From a virus, in UHGV virus genome UHGV-1992300: a stretch of DNA of 48,818 nucleotides; one strand, given 5' to 3'. The notes below the pieces were generated by a model, which was not told the origin of the DNA, made no database searches, and saw only the letters and a program-made list of their open reading frames with translations. The translations under genes and the position numbers were made by a program. This document shows positions 3,469 to 48,818 of this stretch, piece after piece (within the stretch, counting starts at the first letter, position 1; each line of letters starts with the position of its first letter).

Positions 3469-3526
3469 AAAAAGGGCGGCAGAGCAGTCACGGAGTAAAA
3501 CTGATACCGCCAAACGTCACCAGAAA
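3469..3526 (-). ncRNA. dicF: DicF-like small RNA
   Basis: Minus-strand read is TTTCTGGTGACGTTTGGCGGTATCAGTTTTACTCCGTGACTGCTCTGCCGCCCTTTTT: GC hairpin plus U-tract terminator, ~170 nt upstream of the DicB-like ORF, matching the DicF sequence as I recall it. Confidence 0.6.
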
Positions 3527-3862
3527 ATTGATAACAGAGGGCGTTGCAGCGGGGTTGTCACTTAAGCGTATGGTCAACCTGACAACTCGGTNNNNNNNNN
3601 NNNNNNNNNNNATAACCCCGCCATACTTACCGCCGCGCCATTTCGCGGATTGCCACAACCGGAAGCGCACGGTCGACGAAAATTTAACGACAGGCTATCT
3701 ATGAACCAGCTACCTCGCCGTGCGCTTTCGCGTTATGGTCTGACTTTTCAGGGAAATATCCTTTCAGTAAACTGTCAGTGCCGGATGCTCACCCGTGTCC
3801 GGCGCGCGCACTCCACCTCACCCGTGGAGAACTCCTTAATCACCAACCCTCAGGAGGGTGAA

Positions 3863-4138
3863 ATGTCGACTGAAAATGATGAAATCATTAACTCCCTGAT
3901 ACGCCAGATTAATAATTTTGATAAAGCATTGCAACATGCTGCGGCGCGTAGTGATATAACTCTTTTAGCAATTTCATTTCTTGCATCTGTTATGGATAAA
4001 AATGAAGTCGTACGACAGAGTCTTGTTGATTATATCGACTCGCTTCAACCCGGCACTTTCAATCATGAGAGCTTCAATCATGAGAAAGAGCATGTTAAGT
4101 CTGTAATTAATTCTCTTATTTTGAATCAAAAGAATTAA
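3863..4138 (+). CDS. hypothetical protein (AT-rich, opposite orientation to the early-left operon)
   Basis: 91-aa ORF from ATG 3863 with strong SD (AGGAGGGTGAA-ATG); AT-rich coding sequence; overlaps the 3' end of a minus-strand ORF by 23 nt. No recognisable domain. Confidence 0.4.
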   Translation: MSTENDEIINSLIRQINNFDKALQHAAARSDITLLAISFLASVMDKNEVVRQSLVDYIDSLQPGTFNHESFNHEKEHVKSVINSLILNQKN

Positions 4139-4448
4139 TGCTTTTTGTTGCAAAGTAATTTTCAAGGGGTTCTATTCGAATCCCTTTCTTTTTCATTAAC
4201 AAGCCAAACCCCTTATCAATGATGTCCATTAGATCCAGGAAGTATTTTTCATGTAAATCCTGGTTATCAGAGAGCTGCTTCTCTTCGTACAGCCCGATAA
4301 AGGCTCGGCGTACGTTACCGGATATATTGTCGATGGTTTCTTTTTCTACGGTACTCAGGTCAAGAGTCGCCAGTTGAGAGCGAACCACATTCGATGCCAT
4401 TTCCTGGAATGGTACTGGTAAATCTTTAAATTCCATCGTCAACCTCAT
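4116..4448 (-). CDS. hypothetical early-left operon protein
   Basis: 110-aa ORF whose ATG overlaps the stop of the upstream ORF (ATGA coupling); no recognisable domain. Confidence 0.45.
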   Translation of the reverse strand: MRLTMEFKDLPVPFQEMASNVVRSQLATLDLSTVEKETIDNISGNVRRAFIGLYEEKQLSDNQDLHEKYFLDLMDIIDKGFGLLMKKKGIRIEPLENYFATKSINSFDSK

Positions 4449-4681
4449 CAGTCAGTGTTTCTGGTTAACCAGCGACGCGCGCCAGCTTCAGTTTTAAACG
4501 TTTTGCTTCTGGTATACGTCATCGCGGTAAACGTGCCGTCCTGGTTGGGGAACACGCCACATACCAGAGATTCGTTGTTGCCAAGATTGAGCATATCCAT
4601 GTTGACCTCATTTCCCCTTAACGCCGGGGTAGCGGAACAAAAACCTGCTGCATAGTTATTAAAGTTGAAACCTGCCGTCAT
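4448..4681 (-). CDS. hypothetical early-left operon protein (first gene after PL-like promoter)
   Basis: 77-aa ORF immediately downstream (leftward) of the operator/promoter region at 4783-4826; occupies the ydfA-like position. Confidence 0.45.
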   Translation of the reverse strand: MTAGFNFNNYAAGFCSATPALRGNEVNMDMLNLGNNESLVCGVFPNQDGTFTAMTYTRSKTFKTEAGARRWLTRNTD

Positions 4682-4782
4682 GTTCTTACGCCTCGGGCTG
4701 GCTACTTAACCCCTGACCACTGCCTGGTAACTCGAAGTATTGCCCTGCATTCTGTGGGGCGGGGTGGGTTGGTATGAAAAGA

Positions 4783-4865: not shown

Positions 4866-5285
4866 CTATGATGCGTTTTGTGCTTTCTTTTTACGGATTT
4901 CTTCGTAGATCATATTGTAATACTGTTTTTTCTCTTCAAGAGTTTTTAATAATTTATCCGCTTCACTTTCTGGCAGTTCGTCTAAGAGATCTAAAAAAAT
5001 ACGTTGTCGTGGCGTTAGAACCCTTGTTTCATAACTGGAGGCTGTGTTCGTTGATGATGAAACGATACCATCCATCCATCCCCGGGGTAACCCAAAGGAC
5101 TCTTCGATAATCTCCACCATATCATCAGCGATCCGTTTTTTTCCCTTTTTCCCCTCTGGGTACAACATTCTTGATACATAAGAAGGCTCGCGCCCGATCT
5201 TTCTGGCCACGTTAACCGCTTTACCATCGCATTTCTCATCACGAATTTTGATGAGTTGCTGTCGTCTAAATTCATATTTGTCCAT
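4866..5285 (-). CDS. CI/DicA-like prophage repressor (HTH)
   Basis: 139 aa; N-terminal HTH-like segment 'VARKIGREPSYVSRMLY'; C-terminal region resembles DicA ('LLDELPESEADKLL...'); divergent from a Cro-like gene across an operator-rich 100-bp spacer. Confidence 0.75.
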   Translation of the reverse strand: MDKYEFRRQQLIKIRDEKCDGKAVNVARKIGREPSYVSRMLYPEGKKGKKRIADDMVEIIEESFGLPRGWMDGIVSSSTNTASSYETRVLTPRQRIFLDLLDELPESEADKLLKTLEEKKQYYNMIYEEIRKKKAQNAS

Positions 5286-5304: not shown

Positions 5305-5360
5305 TTACCGCAAGGTAAACAACCTGTGGGTATTGACTTTTGTTTACCTGTGGGTATTCT
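5305..5360 (+). promoter_or_regulatory. OR/PR-like operator-promoter region
   Basis: Three related sites TTACCGCAAGGTAA (5305-5318), ACCTGTGGGTATT (5322-5334) and TACCTGTGGGTATT (5345-5358); -35 TTGACT (5333-5338), 16-bp spacer, -10 TATTCT (5355-5360); AAGGAG RBS precedes the ATG at 5386. Confidence 0.55.
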
Positions 5361-5385
5361 TTGCTGTGTTTACTAAGGAGTAGCT

Positions 5386-5667
5386 ATGGAAGAATTAAGA
5401 ATATTTCTCAATTCTCTTTCGTCAGATGAACAGCGTATGTTTGCATGCGAGTGTGGTACCAGCATCGGTTATCTAAGAAAGGCATTGAGTAAAGGTCAAG
5501 TGTTAGGGGCATCGTTATGTGTCCTTATTGAGCGAGCCAGTAATGGTGAAGTTACACGTCAGCAACTAAGGCCTTTTGATTGGATGAATATTTGGCCCGA
5601 GCTGGAAGATACCAAAACGTTAACACAACCACTTTCTAGGAGCTTGATTCATGAAAATCAAGCATGA
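5386..5667 (+). CDS. Cro/YdaS-like HTH regulator
   Basis: 93 aa; 'GTSIGYLRKALSKGQ' HTH-like segment; position and size match Cro/YdaS-family proteins of Rac/Qin-type prophages. Confidence 0.7.
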   Translation: MEELRIFLNSLSSDEQRMFACECGTSIGYLRKALSKGQVLGASLCVLIERASNGEVTRQQLRPFDWMNIWPELEDTKTLTQPLSRSLIHENQA

Positions 5668-6076
5668 ACACATCCGCATGGCGATGAATGTCTGGGCGCA
5701 TCCGGACGGCGAAAAAGTGCCGGCTGCGAAAATTACCAAAGCGTATTTCGAGCTGGGAATGACGTTCCCGGAACTGTATGACGACAGCCATCCGGAAGCC
5801 CTGGCCCGTAATACCCAGAAAATTTTCCGTTGGCTGGATAAAGACACCCCTGATGCTGTTGAAAAAATGCAGGCTCTGTTACCGGCGATCGAAAAGGCGA
5901 TGCCGCCTTTGCTGGTGGCCCGTATGCGTAGCCACAGTTCTGAATATTACCGTGATATCGTCGAACGGAGGGATCGGCTGGTGAAGGATGTCGATGATTT
6001 TGTTGCGTCAGCGGTTGTTTTGTATGACCAGATGAATCGCGGCGGCCCGGCAGGGAATGCTGTGGTGATGCACTAA
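5651..6076 (+). CDS. YdaT-like protein (CII-position regulator)
   Basis: 141 aa immediately after the Cro-like gene with a short overlap; matches the YdaT family by size, position and sequence character (from memory). Confidence 0.6.
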   Translation: MKIKHEHIRMAMNVWAHPDGEKVPAAKITKAYFELGMTFPELYDDSHPEALARNTQKIFRWLDKDTPDAVEKMQALLPAIEKAMPPLLVARMRSHSSEYYRDIVERRDRLVKDVDDFVASAVVLYDQMNRGGPAGNAVVMH

Positions 6077-11561: not shown

Positions 11562-12082
11562 CCTGGCCTGAAGCATTAACAACGGTAGGAATTGCGATGG
11601 CGGTGGCGCTGGTGGTGTATTCGATTTGCCACTGGGGATAAAAACGGTTTGCGGGAAAAGGAGAGTTAAGTAGAATTGCAGCGGGTGCTTGAGGCTATCT
11701 GTCTCAGGCATGAACACCAAAAGGCAGATAGAGAAAAGCCCCAGTTAACATTACGCGTCCGGCAAGACGCTTAACATTAATCTGAGGCCATATCTATGCT
11801 CTACACACGTAGGTTAGCCTCTTACGTGCCGAAAGGCAAGGAGAAGCAGGNNNNNNNNNNNNNNNNNNNNNNNNNNNCTAATCGCCCTGATCGTCATCTG
11901 TTTAACCGTCATTGTGACGGCACTGGTAACGAGGAAAGACCTCTGCGAGGTACGAATCCGAACCGGCCAGACGGAGGTCGCTGTCTTCACAGCTTACGAA
12001 CCTGAGGAGTAAGAGACCCGGCGGGGGAGTAATCTCCCGCCACCTCTGATGTGCCAGGCATCCTCAACGCACCCGCACTTAA

Positions 12083-15641: not shown

Positions 15642-16022
15642 ATGACTGAACGCATAGAATTTGTTTTGCCTTACCCGCCAACGGTGAACACTTACTGGCG
15701 TCGTCGTGGCAGCACATATTTTGTATCAAAAGCCGGGGAGCGTTATCGCCGGGCAGTGGCGCTTATTGTTCGCCAGCAGCGGCTGAAATTAAGCCTGTCC
15801 GGAAGGTTGGCAATAAAAATTATTGCAGAACCACCGGATAAGCGCCGCCGTGATCTGGACAATATTCTGAAAGCGCCGCTGGATGCGCTGACGCATGCGG
15901 GGTTGCTAATGGACGATGAGCAGTTTGATGAAATCAATATCGTTCGTGGTCAGCCAGTATCTGGTGGACGTCTGGGGGTGAAGATTTACCCCATAATGCT
16001 TGAAGGGCAGGTCAAAAAATGA
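15642..16022 (+). CDS. rusA: Holliday junction resolvase RusA
   Basis: 126 aa; 'LPYPPTVNTYWRR' and 'DLDNILKAPLDAL' match the RusA family; typical nin-region position. Confidence 0.9.
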   Translation: MTERIEFVLPYPPTVNTYWRRRGSTYFVSKAGERYRRAVALIVRQQRLKLSLSGRLAIKIIAEPPDKRRRDLDNILKAPLDALTHAGLLMDDEQFDEINIVRGQPVSGGRLGVKIYPIMLEGQVKK

Positions 16023-16836
16023 AACTGGAAGATTTACCGAAATACTACTCCCCAAAATCCCCCGGCCTGACTGATGCATCGGCCTCAACGTCGAAAGATG
16101 CGCTGAGTATCACTGATGTGATGGCCGCGCAGGGCATGACACAGAATCGGGCTGAGATGGGGTTTTCTGCGTTCCTTGGGAAAATGGGCATTAGTATGAA
16201 TGACAGAGAGCGGGCAACAGAATTGCTGACAGAATATGCACTCAGTCGGTGTGATCGCGTGGCGGCGTTAAGAAAACTCCCGGCAGAAATAAAACCGGCA
16301 GTGATGCGTATTATGGCTTCGTATGCGTTTGAAGATTATGCCCGTAGCGCGGCGAGCAAAAAACAGTGCCCCTGCTGTCACGGAAAAAAATTTATTGAAA
16401 GCGAGGTTTTTACAAACAAGATCCAGTATCCGGATGGTAAGCCGCCGGTATGGGCAAAGTGTACGAAAGGTGTGTATCCGTCTTACTGGGAAGAATGGNN
16501 NNNNNNNNNNTGGTAAAAGTTGCCTGTCCGGAGTGTGGCGGAAAGGGTGAGGTTTCCACCGCCTGTAAGGATTGCCGTGGGCGTGGTGTCGCCATTCATC
16601 GTGAAGAGTCGGTAAAACGTGGTATGCCTGTTATCAGAGATTGCCAGCGTTGTGGTGGTCGTGGCTGTGAAAGGCTGCCATCAACGGAGGCATTTAATGC
16701 CATATGCAAAGTGACGAGTGCTATCACGCTTGATACGTGGAAAAAATCAGTGAAACGCTTTTACGATACGTTGGTGGTTCGGTTTGACATTGAAGAGGCA
16801 TGGGCGGAGCGGCAGTTAAAGAGGGTAACGCGATAG
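16019..16836 (+). CDS. Q-position late regulator with DnaJ-like CxxCxGxG zinc-finger repeats (putative antiterminator), interrupted by an N-run
   Basis: Two ORF pieces in different frames either side of the 12-N gap (16499-16510); four CxxCxGxG-like repeats are split across the gap, so a single gene is likely. Sits immediately upstream of a promoter plus terminator. Confidence 0.45.
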
Positions 16837-16842
16837 TGTTGT

Positions 16843-16869
16843 TGATTTTTCCCGAATCTGTGGTAAATT
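16843..16869 (+). promoter_or_regulatory. PR'-like late promoter
   Basis: TTGATT ... TAAATT (short 15-bp spacer) just downstream of the Q-position gene and ~50 bp upstream of a strong terminator. Confidence 0.4.
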
Positions 16870-16916
16870 TGCTCTAACGATGGGCGTTTTATGCCTGACG
16901 TTAGAAGATTTTTTAC

Positions 16917-16940
16917 ACCCCGCCGCCTGGCGGGTTTTTT
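16917..16940 (+). terminator. tR'-like intrinsic terminator
   Basis: CCCGCC-GCCT-GGCGGG hairpin followed by TTTTTT. Confidence 0.7.
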
Positions 16941-17060
16941 ATGACTGAAATCGCGTCAGTACAGTAAACGCGCTGGTGGCGGTGAATACCTGTCTTTCAG
17001 CTTGCTGGCTTTTTCGACAAGAGTTATTGGTGTGTCACGTTAACCGGAAAAGGAAAAGAC

Positions 17061-17258
17061 ATGCTAAAACAGCAGGATATGACAGAAACCGCCAGAGTGG
17101 TGTTTAATGAATTAAGCGTTACCGACCCGGCGACAGTCGGGGAGATAGCGCAGAATACTTACCTTTCACGCGAACGCTGCCAGTTAATACTGACTCAGCT
17201 GGTTATGGCGGGTCTGGCAGACTATCAGTTCGGTTGTTACAGACGCCTTCCGCAGTGA
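17061..17258 (+). CDS. hypothetical small protein
   Basis: 65-aa ORF with AAGGAAAAG RBS between tR' and the methyltransferase. Confidence 0.4.
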   Translation: MLKQQDMTETARVVFNELSVTDPATVGEIAQNTYLSRERCQLILTQLVMAGLADYQFGCYRRLPQ

Positions 17259-17408
17259 AGGCTTTTTTATTTGTGGTAAATGGGCGGCTGGTGGGTGTTA
17301 GGGGCACCCACCAGCCATCTGCTCATGCGTTGGGTTCACAAGCAAACCTCAGGCCCACTGCTTTGCGCAAAAGCAGAATGAGCCTATCAGAGACAGGCTT
17401 AATGATCC

Positions 17409-18458
17409 ATGCTTAATACTGTAAAAATATCCAGTTGTGAGTTAATCAACGCCGACTGCCTGGAATTTATCCGGTCGTTACCCGAAAATTCTGTTGACCT
17501 GATAGTCACGGACCCGCCGTACTTTAAAGTGAAGCCTGAGGGCTGGGATAACCAGTGGAAGGGCGACGATGATTACCTGAAGTGGCTGGACCAGTGTCTG
17601 GCGCAGTTCTGGCGGGTGCTGAAACCTGCCGGAAGTCTTTACCTGTTCTGTGGTCATCGCCTGGCATCTGATATCGAAATCATGATGCGTGAACGCTTCA
17701 GTGTGCTGAACCATATTATCTGGGCGAAGCCGTCCGGACGCTGGAACGGATGCAACAAGGAAAGCCTGCGGGCGTATTTCCCCGCCACAGAGCGCATTCT
17801 GTTCGCGGAACATTATCAGGGGCCGTATCGTCCGAAAGATGCCGGGTATACGGCGAAGGGCAGTGCACTGAAACAGCATGTGATGGCCCCGCTGATTTCT
17901 TACTTTCGTGATGCGCGCGCGGCCCTGGGGATAACGGCAAAACAGATTGCAGATGCCACAGGAAAGAAAAACATGGTGTCGCACTGGTTCAGTGCCAGTC
18001 AGTGGCAGCTACCGAACGAAAGCGATTATCTGAAATTACAGTCGCTGTTTGCCCGGGTGGCAGAAGAGAAACATCAGCGCGGTGAACTGGAAAAGCCCCA
18101 CCACCAGCTGGTGGATACGTATACGTCACTGAACCGGCAGTATGTGGAGCTGCAGAGTGAATATAAGCATCTGCGGCGGTATTTTGGTGTGACGGCGCAG
18201 GTGCCGTACACGGATGTGTGGACACATAAACCGGTGCAGTTCTATCCCGGGAAACATCCGTGCGAAAAACCGGCAGAAATGCTGCAGCAGATAATCAGCG
18301 CAAGCAGTCGTCCGGGAGACCTGGTTGCAGATTTTTTTATGGGCTCAGGTTCAACGGTAAAAGCGGCACTGGCGCTCGGGCGTCGTGCGATTGGCGTTGA
18401 ACTGGAGACCGGACGTTTTGAGCAGACAGTCAGGGAAGTTCAGGATTTAATCGTTTGA
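17409..18458 (+). CDS. DNA N6-adenine/N4-cytosine methyltransferase (beta-class amino-MTase, apparently orphan)
   Basis: 349 aa; motif IV 'DPPY' near the N-terminus and 'FMGSGST' AdoMet-binding motif near the C-terminus; no adjacent restriction endonuclease. Confidence 0.9.
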   Translation: MLNTVKISSCELINADCLEFIRSLPENSVDLIVTDPPYFKVKPEGWDNQWKGDDDYLKWLDQCLAQFWRVLKPAGSLYLFCGHRLASDIEIMMRERFSVLNHIIWAKPSGRWNGCNKESLRAYFPATERILFAEHYQGPYRPKDAGYTAKGSALKQHVMAPLISYFRDARAALGITAKQIADATGKKNMVSHWFSASQWQLPNESDYLKLQSLFARVAEEKHQRGELEKPHHQLVDTYTSLNRQYVELQSEYKHLRRYFGVTAQVPYTDVWTHKPVQFYPGKHPCEKPAEMLQQIISASSRPGDLVADFFMGSGSTVKAALALGRRAIGVELETGRFEQTVREVQDLIV

Positions 18459-18507
18459 AACGGATGAGATTGCAGAATTAATTACGCACCATTATTATTC
18501 TGCTCCC

Positions 18508-18583
18508 GGCCCTTTAGCTCAGTGGTGAGAGCGAGCGACTCATAATCGCCAGGTCGCTGGTTCAAATCCAGCAAGGGCCACCA
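18508..18583 (+). tRNA. tRNA, anticodon CAT (Ile2/Met type; ileZ-like)
   Basis: Cloverleaf read by eye: acceptor GGCCCTT/AAGGGCC, D-arm TAGCTCAGTGGTGAGAGC, anticodon loop CTCATAA, T-loop GGTTCAAATCC, 3' CCA. Confidence 0.85.
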
Positions 18584-18590
18584 TCACATA

Positions 18591-18667
18591 CCGCCATTAG
18601 CTCATCAGGAAAGAGCGCCAGCCTTCGAAGCTGGTTGCGCGGGGTTCAAGTCCCCGATGGCGGTCCA
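18591..18667 (+). tRNA. tRNA-Arg, anticodon TCG
   Basis: Acceptor CCGCCAT/ATGGCGG, anticodon stem-loop CCAGC-CTTCGAA-GCTGG, T-arm CGGGGTTCAAGTCCCCG, 3' CCA. Confidence 0.8.
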
Positions 18668-18680
18668 TTATCTGCATCAT

Positions 18681-18757
18681 GCGTTGTTAGCTCAGCCGGA
18701 CAGAGCAATTGCCTTCTAAGCAATCGGTCACTGGTTCGAATCCAGTACAACGCGCCA
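18681..18757 (+). tRNA. tRNA-Arg, anticodon TCT
   Basis: Acceptor GCGTTGT/ACAACGC, anticodon stem-loop ATTGC-CTTCTAA-GCAAT, T-arm ACTGGTTCGAATCCAGT, 3' CCA. Confidence 0.85.
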
Positions 18758-19048
18758 CACTTATTTTCCCTGGCTCGCTTTTGTGGGCCTTTTTTTTAAA
18801 TGTCTCACAATTTAGGCGGTTGACTGTTGTCTGGTTTGCGGGGAGTTTGTTAAAAGAAACTGGCATGGTGAATCCCCCTGTGCGGAGGGGCAATCAGCGA
18901 GTAGGTATATGGGATAATCGCGGATTCAGGTGCTGGTACTGAATTCACCGGGAGGCACCCGGCACCATGCAATGGCACATAGCGCCACTCTCCAGCCCCT
19001 CTCCGGAGGGGCTGTTTATATTGATTTTGTCAGATGTGAGTAAACTCC

Positions 19049-19384
19049 TTATGGACTTTGTTGTTTTAGCCCATAAGGACATATTTGCAGAGTGCAACGG
19101 TTATTAAAGCATTCATTCAATACGTTATCTGTATTTGTAGGGCATTCCTGGCTGTTTTTGATTAAATTCCAGAATGTTTTATTGAATGGTACTACGTTGT
19201 AAATGGTTACAGGTAGCACTTTGTTATTGAGCATGATGCCTGTGTGAGTCAGTGTAAATATACTTTCAGGAGGTAAGAAAGCATCCGATTGATACCAGAT
19301 TATTAATTTTATTTTACTCCATATGACTGAAAAAGATATTCCGCATGATGGCTGGATAACTGTATCAATCACAATCCACTTCAT
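19049..19384 (-). CDS. hypothetical protein in AT-rich insert (stx-equivalent locus)
   Basis: 111-aa ORF with AAGGAAA RBS 5 nt before the ATG; region 19020-19630 is far more AT-rich than its flanks; four Cys in the C-terminal 30 aa; no recognisable domain. Confidence 0.45.
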
Positions 19385-19644
19385 TTAGTTTCCTTGTTTA
19401 TGCCTTGCTGGTGATGTTCTGAAAAGTATAAATGATATTTTTGATTGTAAACCATAGAGCAGAATTATTTTTCTGATGTTGTTTATTGTTTATTTAAATG
19501 CAGGGTGGTTTATATCTCGTCTTGTAGTTTATCCATGCATATCTGCTTGATGATGAGGTTTTTATTTAAGGTATGGTTTTGTGTTTTTTCTGTATTACAT
19601 GTCAGGTATTTTAAAGAATTATTTTTCAGATGGTGGAAAGAACC

Positions 19645-21606
19645 ATGGCATTTAAACACTATGATGTTGTCAGGGCGGCATCGCCGTCAGACCTTGCGAA
19701 ACGACTGACACAAAAACTGAAGGAGGGGTGGCAGCCATTTGGCAGTCCGGTGGCCATCACGCCTTATACCCTGATGCAGGCCATTGCGGCGGAAGGTGAT
19801 GTCACCACACCTGTGGTGGTGAAGCCGTCGGATGGAGAAGGCGCAGTTATCAGCACCACCAGCAACCCGGAGTATTACTTTGTTGTTGCCCTGGCCGGGC
19901 AGTCAAACGGTATGGCGTATGGTGAAGGGCTTCCGCTGCCGGAGACATATGACCGTCCGGACCCGCGTATTAAACAGCTGGCGCGTCGCAGCACTGTCAC
20001 GCCGGGTGGTGCGTCCTGTAACTACAATGACATTATTCCTGCGGACCACTGCCTGCATGATGTTCAGGATTTGAGTAAGTTTTCACACCCGAAAGCCAGC
20101 GCAGCTCAGTATGGATGCGTGGGGCAGGGATTACATATCGCGAAGAAATTGTTGCCGTTTATTCCGGCGAATGCCGGTATTCTTCTGGTTCCGTGCTGCC
20201 GTGGTGGTTCTGCATTTTTGGCGGGCGATGAAGGTACCTTCAGCGAATCCACCGGCGCAAGCGAGACCTCGGCACGCTGGGGTGTTGATAAGCCACTGTA
20301 CAAGGACCTGCTTACCCGTACTCAGGCCGCACTGAAGGCCAACCCTAAAAATATTCTGCTTGCAGTGGTCTGGATGCAGGGCGAGTTTGATTTGAAACAG
20401 GGTGCATACGCCACTCAGCCGGGGCTGTTTGATTCCATGGTGGAAAAATATCGTTCTGACCTGTCGGAATTCGGAGGTCAGTGTCTCGGGGGCTCTCCGT
20501 CATCGGTTCCCTGGATTTGTGGCGACACGACCTACTACTGGAAGCAGACTTATTCTTCGCAATACGATGCGGTGTATGGTGCATACAAGACGAAATCCGC
20601 AAAAAAAATCTTCTTTGTGCCGTTTATGACGGATGAAAACGGGCGAAATGTGGGTACCAACGAGCCGTCAGAAGATCCGGATGTTGCGGATATTGGGTAT
20701 TACGGAGCCGGTGGTCGAACGGACGCCAAAACCTGGACGACGGCCGACCGTAAAACGCATTTTGGATCATGGGCACGTCGTGGGATTATTTCCGACCGTC
20801 TGGCAACGGCGATTCTTGTGCATGCCGGGAGAAACGCTGAATTCATTACCGGAAAACAGCCTGATACGGTGAAGCCCACCGGACCTTCCGGTGAAGGTAC
20901 GGAGAGAGAGCCGGAAGCCCCGGTCAGTAACCGAACCCTGATGAGTCTGCTGGCGTCCGGCGAAGACCTGGCATCACAGGGCTGGCGCTATTATCACAAA
21001 CCGGCGAGCGGAGACAATGTTAACAAAAACATTGCTGAAGCGGTGGTCAGTGATGCGGGGGCTACGGGAGGTAAGGCCCTGCAACTGAATAAACCGGAAA
21101 ACCACATCTGGTTTCTGGAGCATGATGCAGCCGGACAGGGAGTGGAGTTACTGAAGAAGGGGGGACGTGTGAGCGTACGGTTTAAGTTGCCGGGTTCACT
21201 GGTGCCGAATCAGTTTGCCCTGGGCATTTACTGGCAGTTGTCGTCCCTGCCGGAGGGAGTGACGCTGGCAGAGGAAGGCAACGACATGCTGATGTCCTTC
21301 TTTCTGCAGACGGATGCGACGAACCTGAACGCGATGCACCACAAGAAGCCGAATGCGAAGCTGGAAACGTTCGGGGTCTTTGATAACGGATGGCACACAC
21401 TGGCTTTTGAGTTTGCCGGAAACAACAGCATTCAGGTGACGCCGGTACTGGATGAGAAACGGGGGACGCCGTTCACACTGGTGAAATCTCCGGCATCAGG
21501 GGCGGCGGACAAACTGCAACTGACAGGCATATCAAAGGCGGCGACATATACGCTGCTGATTGACAGTGTGAAGGTGGAAGTGAACAACGCGGACATCGCG
21601 GCATGA
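19645..21606 (+). CDS. NanS-p-like sialate O-acetylesterase (DUF1737 N-terminus + SASA esterase domain)
   Basis: Starts 'MAFKHYDVV'; 'ALAGQSNGMAYGEG' esterase motif; same position as the nanS-p/yjhS-like gene downstream of stx in Stx phages (from memory). Confidence 0.85.
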   Translation: MAFKHYDVVRAASPSDLAKRLTQKLKEGWQPFGSPVAITPYTLMQAIAAEGDVTTPVVVKPSDGEGAVISTTSNPEYYFVVALAGQSNGMAYGEGLPLPETYDRPDPRIKQLARRSTVTPGGASCNYNDIIPADHCLHDVQDLSKFSHPKASAAQYGCVGQGLHIAKKLLPFIPANAGILLVPCCRGGSAFLAGDEGTFSESTGASETSARWGVDKPLYKDLLTRTQAALKANPKNILLAVVWMQGEFDLKQGAYATQPGLFDSMVEKYRSDLSEFGGQCLGGSPSSVPWICGDTTYYWKQTYSSQYDAVYGAYKTKSAKKIFFVPFMTDENGRNVGTNEPSEDPDVADIGYYGAGGRTDAKTWTTADRKTHFGSWARRGIISDRLATAILVHAGRNAEFITGKQPDTVKPTGPSGEGTEREPEAPVSNRTLMSLLASGEDLASQGWRYYHKPASGDNVNKNIAEAVVSDAGATGGKALQLNKPENHIWFLEHDAAGQGVELLKKGGRVSVRFKLPGSLVPNQFALGIYWQLSSLPEGVTLAEEGNDMLMSFFLQTDATNLNAMHHKKPNAKLETFGVFDNGWHTLAFEFAGNNSIQVTPVLDEKRGTPFTLVKSPASGAADKLQLTGISKAATYTLLIDSVKVEVNNADIAA

Positions 21607-46754: not shown

Positions 46755-48818
46755 ATGGCAGCAGTAAAAATCTCAGGTGTGCTGAAAGATGGTGCGGGAA
46801 AACCAATACAGAACTGCACTATTCAACTGAAGGCAAAGCGTAACAGCACCACGGTACTGGTGAACACGGTGGCCTCTGAAAATCCGGATGAAGCCGGGCG
46901 TTACAGCATGGATGTTGAGTATGGCCAGTACAGCGTCACCCTGCTGGTTGAAGGTTTTCCGCCTTCACATGCCGGAACCATTACCGTCTATGAAGGTTCC
47001 AGACCAGGTACGCTGAATGATTTTCTCGGTGCCATGACGGAAGATGATGTCATGCCGGAGGCATTGCGTCGTTTTGAGGCAATGGTGGAAGAAGCGGCAC
47101 GCAACGCTGAAGCCGCCTTTCAGAGCGCAGCGGCGGCAAAGAAATCCGAAACTGCAGCGGCATCATCGAAGAACGCGGCGAAAACCTCAGAAACGAATGC
47201 AGCTAACAGCGCACAGGCGGCAGCGTCCTCGCAGACTGCATCGGCAAACTCCGCGACAGCAGCCAAAAAATCAGAAACCAACGCGAAAAACAGCGAGACA
47301 GCCGCAAAGACGAGCGAAACCAACGCAAAGTCCAGCCAGACGGCAGCGAAAACCAGCGAAACGAATGCCAAAGCCAGTGAAACTGCGGCGAAAAATAGCC
47401 AGAATGCAGCAGCCGAAAGCGAGAGCGCGGCAGCCGGTTCTGCGACTGCAGCAGCTGGATCAGCAACTGCTGCGGCTAACAGCCAGAAAGCAGCGAAGAC
47501 GAGCGAAACTAACGCAAAGTCCAGCCAGACGGCAGCGAAGACCAGCGAAACNNNNNNNNNNNNNNNNNNNNNNNNNNNNNNNNNNNNNNNNNNNNNNNNN
47601 NNNNNAGCAGCCGAAAGCGAGAGTGCTGCAGCTGGTTCTGCAAGTGCGGCGGCTGCTTCTGCCACTGCATCAGCAAACAGTCAAAAAGCTGCAAAAACCA
47701 GTGAAACCAATGCAAAGACAAGCGAGACTGCAGCGGCGAACTCGGCGCAAGCATCGGCAGCAAGCCAGACAGCAGCTAAAGCAAGTGAGGATGCAGCCAG
47801 AGAGTATGCAAGCCAGGCAGCAGAGCCGTATAAATATGTCTTACAGCCACTGCCTGATGTGTGGATACCGTTTAACGATTCACTGGATATGCTTGCTGGC
47901 TTTTCGCCTGGTTATAAGCAAATAACCGTAGGTGATGATGTTATTAAAATGCCATCCGATAAGGTTGTTAGCTTCAAACGCGCATCAGGTGCAACATACA
48001 TTAATAAATCAGGTGTATTAACCGTTGCTGAAGTTGACGAACCGCGATTTGAACGAGAAGGTTTGCTGATTGAAGGACAGAGAACAAACTATTTCAGAAA
48101 TTCAAATACACCAGAAGCATGGAATAACACGGGTAGTGTGTCTGTTGAGTCGTTCGACAGTGATAAGGGGTTTAACTATGGAAGGATAACTGTTATTAAT
48201 GAAAATCCGACAGCACAAGGATATCAGGCAATTGCTGTAAACACGAATGATGCTTACACCTGCCCGGCAGGTTCTTATACGACGATATCGTGTCTGACGA
48301 AAAGTGATAATTCCCGGTGTCGTGCAAGGTTCGGAAAAATGTCTGATAATGGTGCGTTTGTTTTTCATTCAGATGCAGTTCTGGATCCTGTTACGGGAAA
48401 TGTTGTTCATGGAAATAATGTGACGGTGACGGCAGAAAGAGTCGGTGAATGGTGGTTGTTTACCGCCACTCTTTTTGCAGATGCGGAAATGATAATCAGC
48501 TCAAGATTTGAAATCCTGGCGATGCCTGGAATCAGTATTATCCCCAATGGCTCTACGTTAGATATTGCGATGCCTCAGGCGGAGATTGGGTCGTACAGGA
48601 CGTCATTTATCATTACTGAAGGGGCTCCTGGCACTCGCTCCAGCGACATGGTGACAATACCTGTAAGAAACAATATTCACCGATTACCATTCAGTGCTCT
48701 TGTTGAAGTTAATAAAAACTGGGATATCCCTCCCAGCAAATCACCATTAATCTTTAATGTTAAAGATTATCAGGAAAATGGTCTGTTCACGCATGGGGTG
48801 ATGCTGCCAACTTACTGA
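46755..48818 (+). CDS. stf: side tail fibre protein (Stf-like), gap-interrupted repeat region
   Basis: N-terminus 'MAAVKISGVLKDGAGKPIQNCTIQLKAKRNSTTV' matches lambda Stf; central AAKTSETNA-type tandem repeats contain the 54-N run; divergent C-terminal domain. Confidence 0.8.
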   Translation: MAAVKISGVLKDGAGKPIQNCTIQLKAKRNSTTVLVNTVASENPDEAGRYSMDVEYGQYSVTLLVEGFPPSHAGTITVYEGSRPGTLNDFLGAMTEDDVMPEALRRFEAMVEEAARNAEAAFQSAAAAKKSETAAASSKNAAKTSETNAANSAQAAASSQTASANSATAAKKSETNAKNSETAAKTSETNAKSSQTAAKTSETNAKASETAAKNSQNAAAESESAAAGSATAAAGSATAAANSQKAAKTSETNAKSSQTAAKTSEXXXXXXXXXXXXXXXXXXXAAESESAAAGSASAAAASATASANSQKAAKTSETNAKTSETAAANSAQASAASQTAAKASEDAAREYASQAAEPYKYVLQPLPDVWIPFNDSLDMLAGFSPGYKQITVGDDVIKMPSDKVVSFKRASGATYINKSGVLTVAEVDEPRFEREGLLIEGQRTNYFRNSNTPEAWNNTGSVSVESFDSDKGFNYGRITVINENPTAQGYQAIAVNTNDAYTCPAGSYTTISCLTKSDNSRCRARFGKMSDNGAFVFHSDAVLDPVTGNVVHGNNVTVTAERVGEWWLFTATLFADAEMIISSRFEILAMPGISIIPNGSTLDIAMPQAEIGSYRTSFIITEGAPGTRSSDMVTIPVRNNIHRLPFSALVEVNKNWDIPPSKSPLIFNVKDYQENGLFTHGVMLPTY

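Follow-up and report, generated by a model that had tools for sequence, protein, structure and literature searches.

The window (the whole 48,818-nucleotide stretch of viral DNA analyzed here, UHGV-1992300) carries, in order, genes for a Q-type antiterminator, a DNA methyltransferase, tRNAs, an SASA/NanS-p esterase, a holin, a lysozyme, and Rz. This order was read from an annotated genome with 97.8% identity across window positions 15643–19802 and confirms the Stx-phage-like layout put forward in the original prediction. The three tRNAs that it named (CAT, TCG, and TCT) are also found by ARAGORN. The features from the tRNAs through the esterase gene are as follows.

18508–18583, plus strand: tRNA CAT, annotated as tRNA-Ile2, equivalent to ileZ (ARAGORN, Rfam tRNA)
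18591–18667, plus strand: tRNA Arg-TCG, equivalent to argN (ARAGORN, Rfam tRNA)
18681–18757, plus strand: tRNA Arg-TCT, equivalent to argO (ARAGORN, Rfam tRNA)
18772–18797, plus strand: intrinsic terminator 3′ of the tRNAs, stem GGCTCGC/GTGGGCC followed by T8 (terminator scan)
18798–18801, strand not applicable: empty stxAB slot (pairwise blastn, junction sequences)
18834–19023, plus strand: STnc100-family prophage sRNA gene (Rfam RF02076, terminator scan)
19049–19384, minus strand: coding sequence of 111 aa, assigned to iraL by identity to CFT073 IraL and by NF007393
19385–19417, minus strand: iraL 5′UTR, 33 nt (5′-RACE sequence match)
19418–19451, minus strand: iraL sigma70 promoter, placed by the start mapped in CFT073, with putative hexamers
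19452–19644, minus strand: AT-rich DNA 5′ of the iraL promoter (composition; 97% identical to CFT073)
19645–21606, plus strand: NanS-p-type SASA-family carbohydrate esterase gene with an N-terminal DUF1737 (ORF list, annotation of a near-identical genome)

The modules thus run tRNAs, terminator, empty stxAB slot (18798/18801), STnc100 (plus), iraL (minus), and nanS-p. On the left, the tRNA block (18508–18757) is 91% identical to that of 933W, and the terminator at 18772–18797 is homologous to the 933W element described as a [quoted passage not shown] with which it is colinear (933W segment 4386–4409). The right-hand border of the variable slot is formed by the NanS-p esterase gene, which shares 91% identity with the start of 933W gp42. 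From ∼19000 to 19650, GC content is 0.28–0.38 versus 0.49–0.58 on either side (200-bp values), in agreement with the AT-rich block first described there. The part of this DNA that precedes the iraL promoter (19452–19644) stops precisely where the start codon of nanS-p begins and probably has a regulatory role. The view of the locus as a moron region 3′ of Q/PR′ and the tRNAs, in a lambdoid prophage built like the Stx phages, is supported.

Some features elsewhere in the window were observed in passing. Rfam places DicF at 3474–3525 (minus strand; 76.7 bits) and, at 11683–11850 (plus strand; 109.9 bits), sok, the antitoxin RNA of a hokD/sok module. Masked bases (N runs) occupy 3592–3611, 11851–11877, 16499–16510, and 47552–47605; the run at 16499–16510 breaks the reading frame of the Q-like antiterminator in the ORF list. 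Two strong intrinsic-terminator-like hairpins with T-runs, at 16919–16934 and 17245–17262 (plus strand), lie 3′ of the Q-like gene and are candidate tR′-type terminators. The stretch 16780–17450 showed no consensus promoter for sigma70.

The sRNA gene at 18834–19023 matches STnc100 (RF02076) over its full length (model positions 1–206) with 132.4 bits, where the gathering score is 47, and has a minimum free energy of −74.6 kcal/mol (z = −2.26). It contains an internal stem at 18875–18890 and an intrinsic terminator, the stem of which (18993–19014) is followed by a T-rich tail. Published qPCR primers for STnc_100 (PMC12370729) match exactly at 18864–18883 and 18937–18956. The promoter scan found no sigma70-like promoter 5′ of the gene on the plus strand. 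The original prediction had described two GC hairpins here as a lead-in to the minus-strand ORF. Both hairpins are real, but the stem of the first (given as 18865–18890) is the one at 18875–18890, internal to STnc100, and the second (given as 18988–19005) covers only the 5′ half of the terminator stem; they belong to a separate plus-strand gene and not to the ORF.

Among the known prophage sRNAs, STnc100 and the related PasD lie just 3′ of stx and 5′ of the esterase gene (PMC12370729), and the plus-strand EcOnc27 was described as belonging to a pair of convergent sRNAs located 3′ of stx2B (Tree et al. 2014, PMC4104026). Like STnc100, PasD, and EcOnc27, the window gene is a full-length member in the usual place, between the stx slot and the esterase gene; it is ∼70% identical to the 933W copy. 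Because stx is absent, the published complementarity between STnc100 and stxB has no target in the window. In phage vB_EcoS-640R1, which also carries iraL, two tandem STnc100 copies (138 and 132.5 bits; positions 4562–4755 and 5031–5219 of the extracted segment) lie 5′ of iraL. On the minus strand at 18853–18978, RefSeq genomes nearly identical to the window carry a pseudogene annotated as “incomplete hypothetical protein,” for which phage 640R1 has a 70-aa hypothetical CDS. Because it falls wholly inside STnc100, on the opposite strand, this annotated gene is probably an artifact.

The minus-strand ORF at 19049–19384 has the properties first ascribed to it, namely a length of 111 aa, an ATG start, a good Shine–Dalgarno sequence (AAGGAAA), and a Cys-rich C terminus with four cysteines. 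Its product is identical at 111 of 111 residues to IraL of the uropathogenic E. coli strain CFT073 (c1429/WP_000871291.1), the locus of which, in the potB prophage, has a matching layout (Q, tRNA-Ile/Arg/Arg, IraL, DUF1737, lysis). The product scores 162 bits against NCBIfam NF007393, “anti-adapter protein IraM” (curated cutoff 121), in a match that covers residues 1–110 and profile positions 1–113 of 114, and aligns without gaps to K-12 IraM at 62% identity. Residues 1–78 match PDB 8twd_A, the crystallized IraM(1–78) core (E = 9e-32). The residues by which IraM contacts RssB (clusters I–III) are identical at 10 of 13 positions, the changes being T13S, H63N, and I64V. The homology and structure search suggested along with the original prediction has thus led to IraL, NF007393, and 8twd.

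Of 5,426 complete E. coli genomes, 1,428 contain the 883-bp region at 80% coverage or more, and the gene is always annotated there as IraM. The IraM/IraL family is small, forming 20 clusters at 90% identity, and hardly extends beyond Escherichia. An hmmscan against Pfam-A returned no match for IraL or K-12 IraM even at E ≤ 10; the precomputed domain assignments that came with the homologue search give PF11183 for nearly all family members. [quoted passage not shown] 2014, PMC4045071). From the 100% identity of the protein and the 98% identity of the promoter and 5′UTR, we infer that the IraL of the window has the same RssB-binding, RpoS-stabilizing activity. It is very likely, in our judgment, that the ORF is iraL, a prophage moron expressed in the lysogen.

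The transcription start of CFT073 iraL has been mapped by 5′-RACE in log phase (PMC4045071). The RACE sequence, ACATCACCAGCAAGGCATAAACAAGGAAACCA (PMC4045071), matches window positions 19417→19386 at 31 of 32 nucleotides and places the corresponding start at 19417, which bears out the suggestion that the ORF is a real gene with its own promoter, as expected of a lysogen-expressed moron. The Shine–Dalgarno sequence lies at 19395–19389, 5 nt ahead of the ATG. Between −100 and the ATG, the window and CFT073 are identical at 133 of 136 positions (97.8%), which exceeds the conservation of at least 96% reported for the upstream regions of all iraL loci (PMC4045071). As hexamers we infer a −10 TATACT at 19430–19425 and a candidate −35 TTTACA at 19451–19446, separated by a suboptimal spacer of 15 nt. 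A simple promoter scan did not recover the mapped promoter because of this spacer; it gave two other minus-strand consensus matches, which is chance level (2 found versus 2.7 expected). The iraL gene, promoter, transcription start, and Shine–Dalgarno sequence are all intact in the window, and this copy is presumably expressed in the lysogen.

In CFT073, iraL is up in a fur mutant (mRNA or protein; PMC7157518) and up by 1.6 log2 at 37 °C (mRNA or protein; PMC12890032). We considered PhoP control, by analogy with iraM; a GGTTTA overlaps the −35 region, and TGTTTA-N5-TATTTA lies on the opposite strand. Such PhoP-like matches are, however, to be expected near iraL because the region is so AT-rich, and expression of IraL without stress (PMC4045071) does not fit the idea.

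The window differs from the mapped CFT073 promoter and 5′UTR by three SNPs: at −28 (19445), where A replaces T directly beside the likely −35; at −1 (19418), a change of G to A; and at +31. Together with the spacing, which is already suboptimal, these raise the question of whether iraL, although intact, is silent or weak in this prophage, a passenger rather than an active stabilizer of RpoS. [quoted passage not shown] For the window, silence or weakness of this kind seems unlikely. The TATACT and TTTACA hexamers are both intact. Moreover, when promoter alleles were counted by allele-specific 45-mers, the window allele proved commoner (796 genomes) than the CFT073 allele (308 genomes), and the iraL coding sequence is 100% identical to that of CFT073. 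The frequency of the allele and the identity of the coding sequence argue for maintenance by selection.

A separate question is how iraL relates to the stx genes. Module borders were set by pairwise BLAST against 933W, the Stx2c phage 1717, and Shigella phage 75/02. Window positions 18357–18798, which take in the tRNAs and the terminator, share 91% identity with 933W. Homology to 933W and 1717 upstream of stxA stops at 18798, and the DNA downstream of stxB begins matching at 18801. The stxAB cassette (about 1.33 kb in 933W and 1717) maps to this clean junction, ∼250 bp upstream of the ORF; nothing in the window corresponds to the next 1,332 bp of 933W, which hold stxA and stxB together with the stx promoter and the 41 bp that follow stxB. 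Searches of the whole window by tblastn and blastn revealed no remnants of stx1 or stx2, with no match better than E = 0.06. The pair that marks an Stx-converting phage, stxA plus stxB, is absent from the window. At the left end of the homology, the 3′ end of the window DNA methyltransferase gene (18357–18458) aligns with 933W segment 3970–4070, annotated as non-coding DNA 5′ of the tRNAs, which suggests that 933W retains a remnant of the DNA methyltransferase gene.

The iraL module itself extends from the end of STnc100 (about 19024) to 19644; 933W and phage 75/02 become homologous to the window again precisely at the first codon of nanS-p. The alignment against Stx phages that the original prediction called for thus sets the boundaries at 18798/18801 and 19644. 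In the other phages, the same gap holds AsxR (933W; reverse strand, Rfam scan), AgvB (Shigella phage 75/02; reverse strand, Rfam scan), or a reversed IraM-like gene (1717). In each of these three (segment positions 5778–6037 in 933W, 3972–4225 in 75/02, and 5335–5546 in 1717), STnc100 (plus) is followed at once by the reverse-strand cargo and then by nanS-p, the variable module ending at the nanS-p start codon. In the window, AsxR (RF02703) and AgvB (RF02702) gave no Rfam match at E ≤ 0.1 in 16800–20000, and a blastn-short search for their remnants beside iraL gave chance matches only. The IraM-like gene of 1717 (Stx2-1717_gp43; NC_011357 26252–26575; segment 5001–5324) lies directly 3′ of stx2cAB and STnc100. 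Its protein is 75% identical to IraL and 65% to IraM and constitutes a third IraM/IraL subclade. By tblastn, IraL-like genes of 72–74% identity are present in ∼40 further Stx2 phage records; the layout was examined in 1717. A literature search on the IraM-like genes of Stx2 phages found nothing specific and no functional study.

CFT073 differs in its stx slot (tRNA-Arg to STnc100), which contains an unrelated 642-bp insert with a gene for a DUF3927 small protein (NC_004431 about 1342567–1343208; segment 22568–23209). This insert replaces the post-tRNA terminator of the window and 933W; iraL stays in its own slot despite it.

These maps bear on the original idea that the ORF stands at the Stx locus “instead of toxin genes.” In its explicit form, the AT-rich cassette would have replaced stxAB by exchange in a former Stx phage and would be an alternative cargo of the toxin slot. 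The overall layout is indeed Stx-phage-like and the window has no stx genes, but the stx cassette maps outside the AT-rich block, and STnc100, part of the DNA downstream of stxB, is kept between the two. Further, an IraM-like gene coexists with stx2cAB in 1717, genes of 72–74% identity occur in the other Stx2 phage records, and in CFT073 the stx slot is filled by the DUF3927 insert while iraL occupies its own. Exchange for stxAB is thus very improbable. Because the IraM-like gene coexists with stx2cAB in 1717 and the stx junction sits elsewhere, iraL is no replacement of stx; as judged from these alignments, it is a neighboring module, carried together with the toxin in some phages and without it in others.

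Small, reverse-oriented, AT-rich morons in this position are often of the toxin, exclusion, or defense type, and the PHROGs entry for the family reads “unknown function.” The suggestion that the ORF is such a moron, or is spurious within decaying DNA, is nevertheless hardly tenable, as PADLOC found no defense-protein family for it at E ≤ 0.1, the identical protein is a demonstrated RssB anti-adaptor (PMC4045071), the ORF is intact and kept in more than 1,400 genomes, and a decayed stx remnant without homologues, which the original prediction had named as its refuting case, is at odds with the many homologues and the complete lack of stx remnants.

The C-terminal tail of IraL (residues 81–111; window 19049–19141) has four cysteines in the last 31 residues, at positions 81, 92, 97, and 102, with the signature C81-P-x9-C92-x4-C97-x3-I-C102-P-x-G105. 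In an 18-sequence alignment of the family, C81–P82, C92, C97, I101–C102–P103, and G105 show no variation, even among members with as little as 53% identity; Cys14, which contacts RssB, does vary in this alignment. A Salmonella homologue at 35% identity keeps the CP...C...C...CPFG pattern. Structural work on IraM truncated the tail at residue 78, describing it as proteolytically unstable, less conserved, flexible, and dispensable for RssB binding (bioRxiv 10.1101/2023.01.07.523045). An AF2 model built from a 16-sequence family alignment has a mean pLDDT of 54.8, with values below 50 in the tail. The secondary structure of this low-confidence model, seven strands and a helix at 69–77, agrees with the β-barrel-plus-helix core of 8TWD; its confidence is too poor for a fold search or for judging whether the Cys tail folds. 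One could speculate that the IraL/IraM tail is a conserved module, responsive to metals or to redox state, by which the anti-adaptor is tuned in its stability or activity and, linked to this, that the gap between the STnc100 terminator and nanS-p is an exchange slot for reverse-oriented “anti-regulators” (anti-sRNAs and anti-adaptors) silenced by antisense late transcription upon induction. We regard this combined proposal as possible but rather doubtful.

The locus can be pictured to work as follows. Transcription of iraL would proceed leftward from its own sigma70 promoter (19417), opposing the phage late operon. IraL would bind RssB, the response-regulator-like adaptor, and RssB so bound would stop delivering RpoS (sigma-S) to the ClpXP protease. 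RpoS would build up, and the general stress regulon would be on even in exponential growth. The iraL transcript would meet the STnc100 terminator hairpin 35 nt beyond the stop codon; because iraL has no terminator of its own, this hairpin may end or stabilize the mRNA, although termination there is uncertain because, on the minus strand, the hairpin is not followed by a U-tract. On induction, Q-antiterminated late transcription would run antisense to iraL and would probably interfere with its expression.

Every component has been described before (iraL, its product, its promoter, and the neighboring sRNA are all published). What emerges here is a precise map of the hot spot, from the tRNA terminator and the empty stx slot to STnc100 and the reverse-strand cargo slot with iraL. 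It depicts an RpoS-stabilizing gene that is independent of toxin, found with stx in Stx2c/Stx2a phages and without stx in prophages of UPEC and commensals. Carriage of such a prophage predicts raised RpoS in exponential phase and, in turn, effects on stress tolerance and niche fitness. In O157 phages, a gene that may stabilize RpoS is physically coupled to stx2.

The closest known system is the IraL locus of CFT073, where, as in the window, the gene lies between the tRNAs/STnc100 and the DUF1737/esterase gene. That locus has an IS200 after Q, the 642-bp DUF3927 insert, and a truncated esterase gene, whereas the window has a DNA methyltransferase gene, an empty stx slot, and a full-length esterase gene. 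IraM of K-12 (YcgW/ElbA; 8TWD), the anti-adaptor of Mg2+ starvation, belongs to the same NF007393 family and shares the four C-terminal cysteines with IraL. Its gene adjoins the cryptic prophage e14, whereas iraL of the window lies in a Stx-like moron region. [quoted passage not shown] The sole structural relative of the IraM core is PmrD, the PhoP–PmrA connector (bioRxiv 10.1101/2023.01.07.523045). No sequence relationship of IraL/IraM to PmrD was detected by hmmscan. PmrD and IraM each bind a receiver domain and hold a phosphorylated-like state, but the target of PmrD is PmrA and not RssB.

Among phages, the IraM-like genes of Stx2c/Stx2a phages (for example, Stx2-1717_gp43 and that of phage 2851) are reversed, like iraL, and occupy the same slot between STnc100 and nanS-p. 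The DNA of 1717 is colinear with window positions 18801–19900 at 72%; unlike iraL of the window, its IraM-like gene adjoins stx2AB. Finally, AsxR and AgvB of EHEC prophages (Tree et al. 2014, PMC4104026) are positional analogues, reverse-oriented, convergent with an STnc100/EcOnc27-type sRNA, and located directly 5′ of nanS-p. They differ from IraL in being RNAs of 51–60 nt that sponge FnrS or GcvB, whereas IraL is a protein, but like IraL they neutralize a negative regulator of the host.
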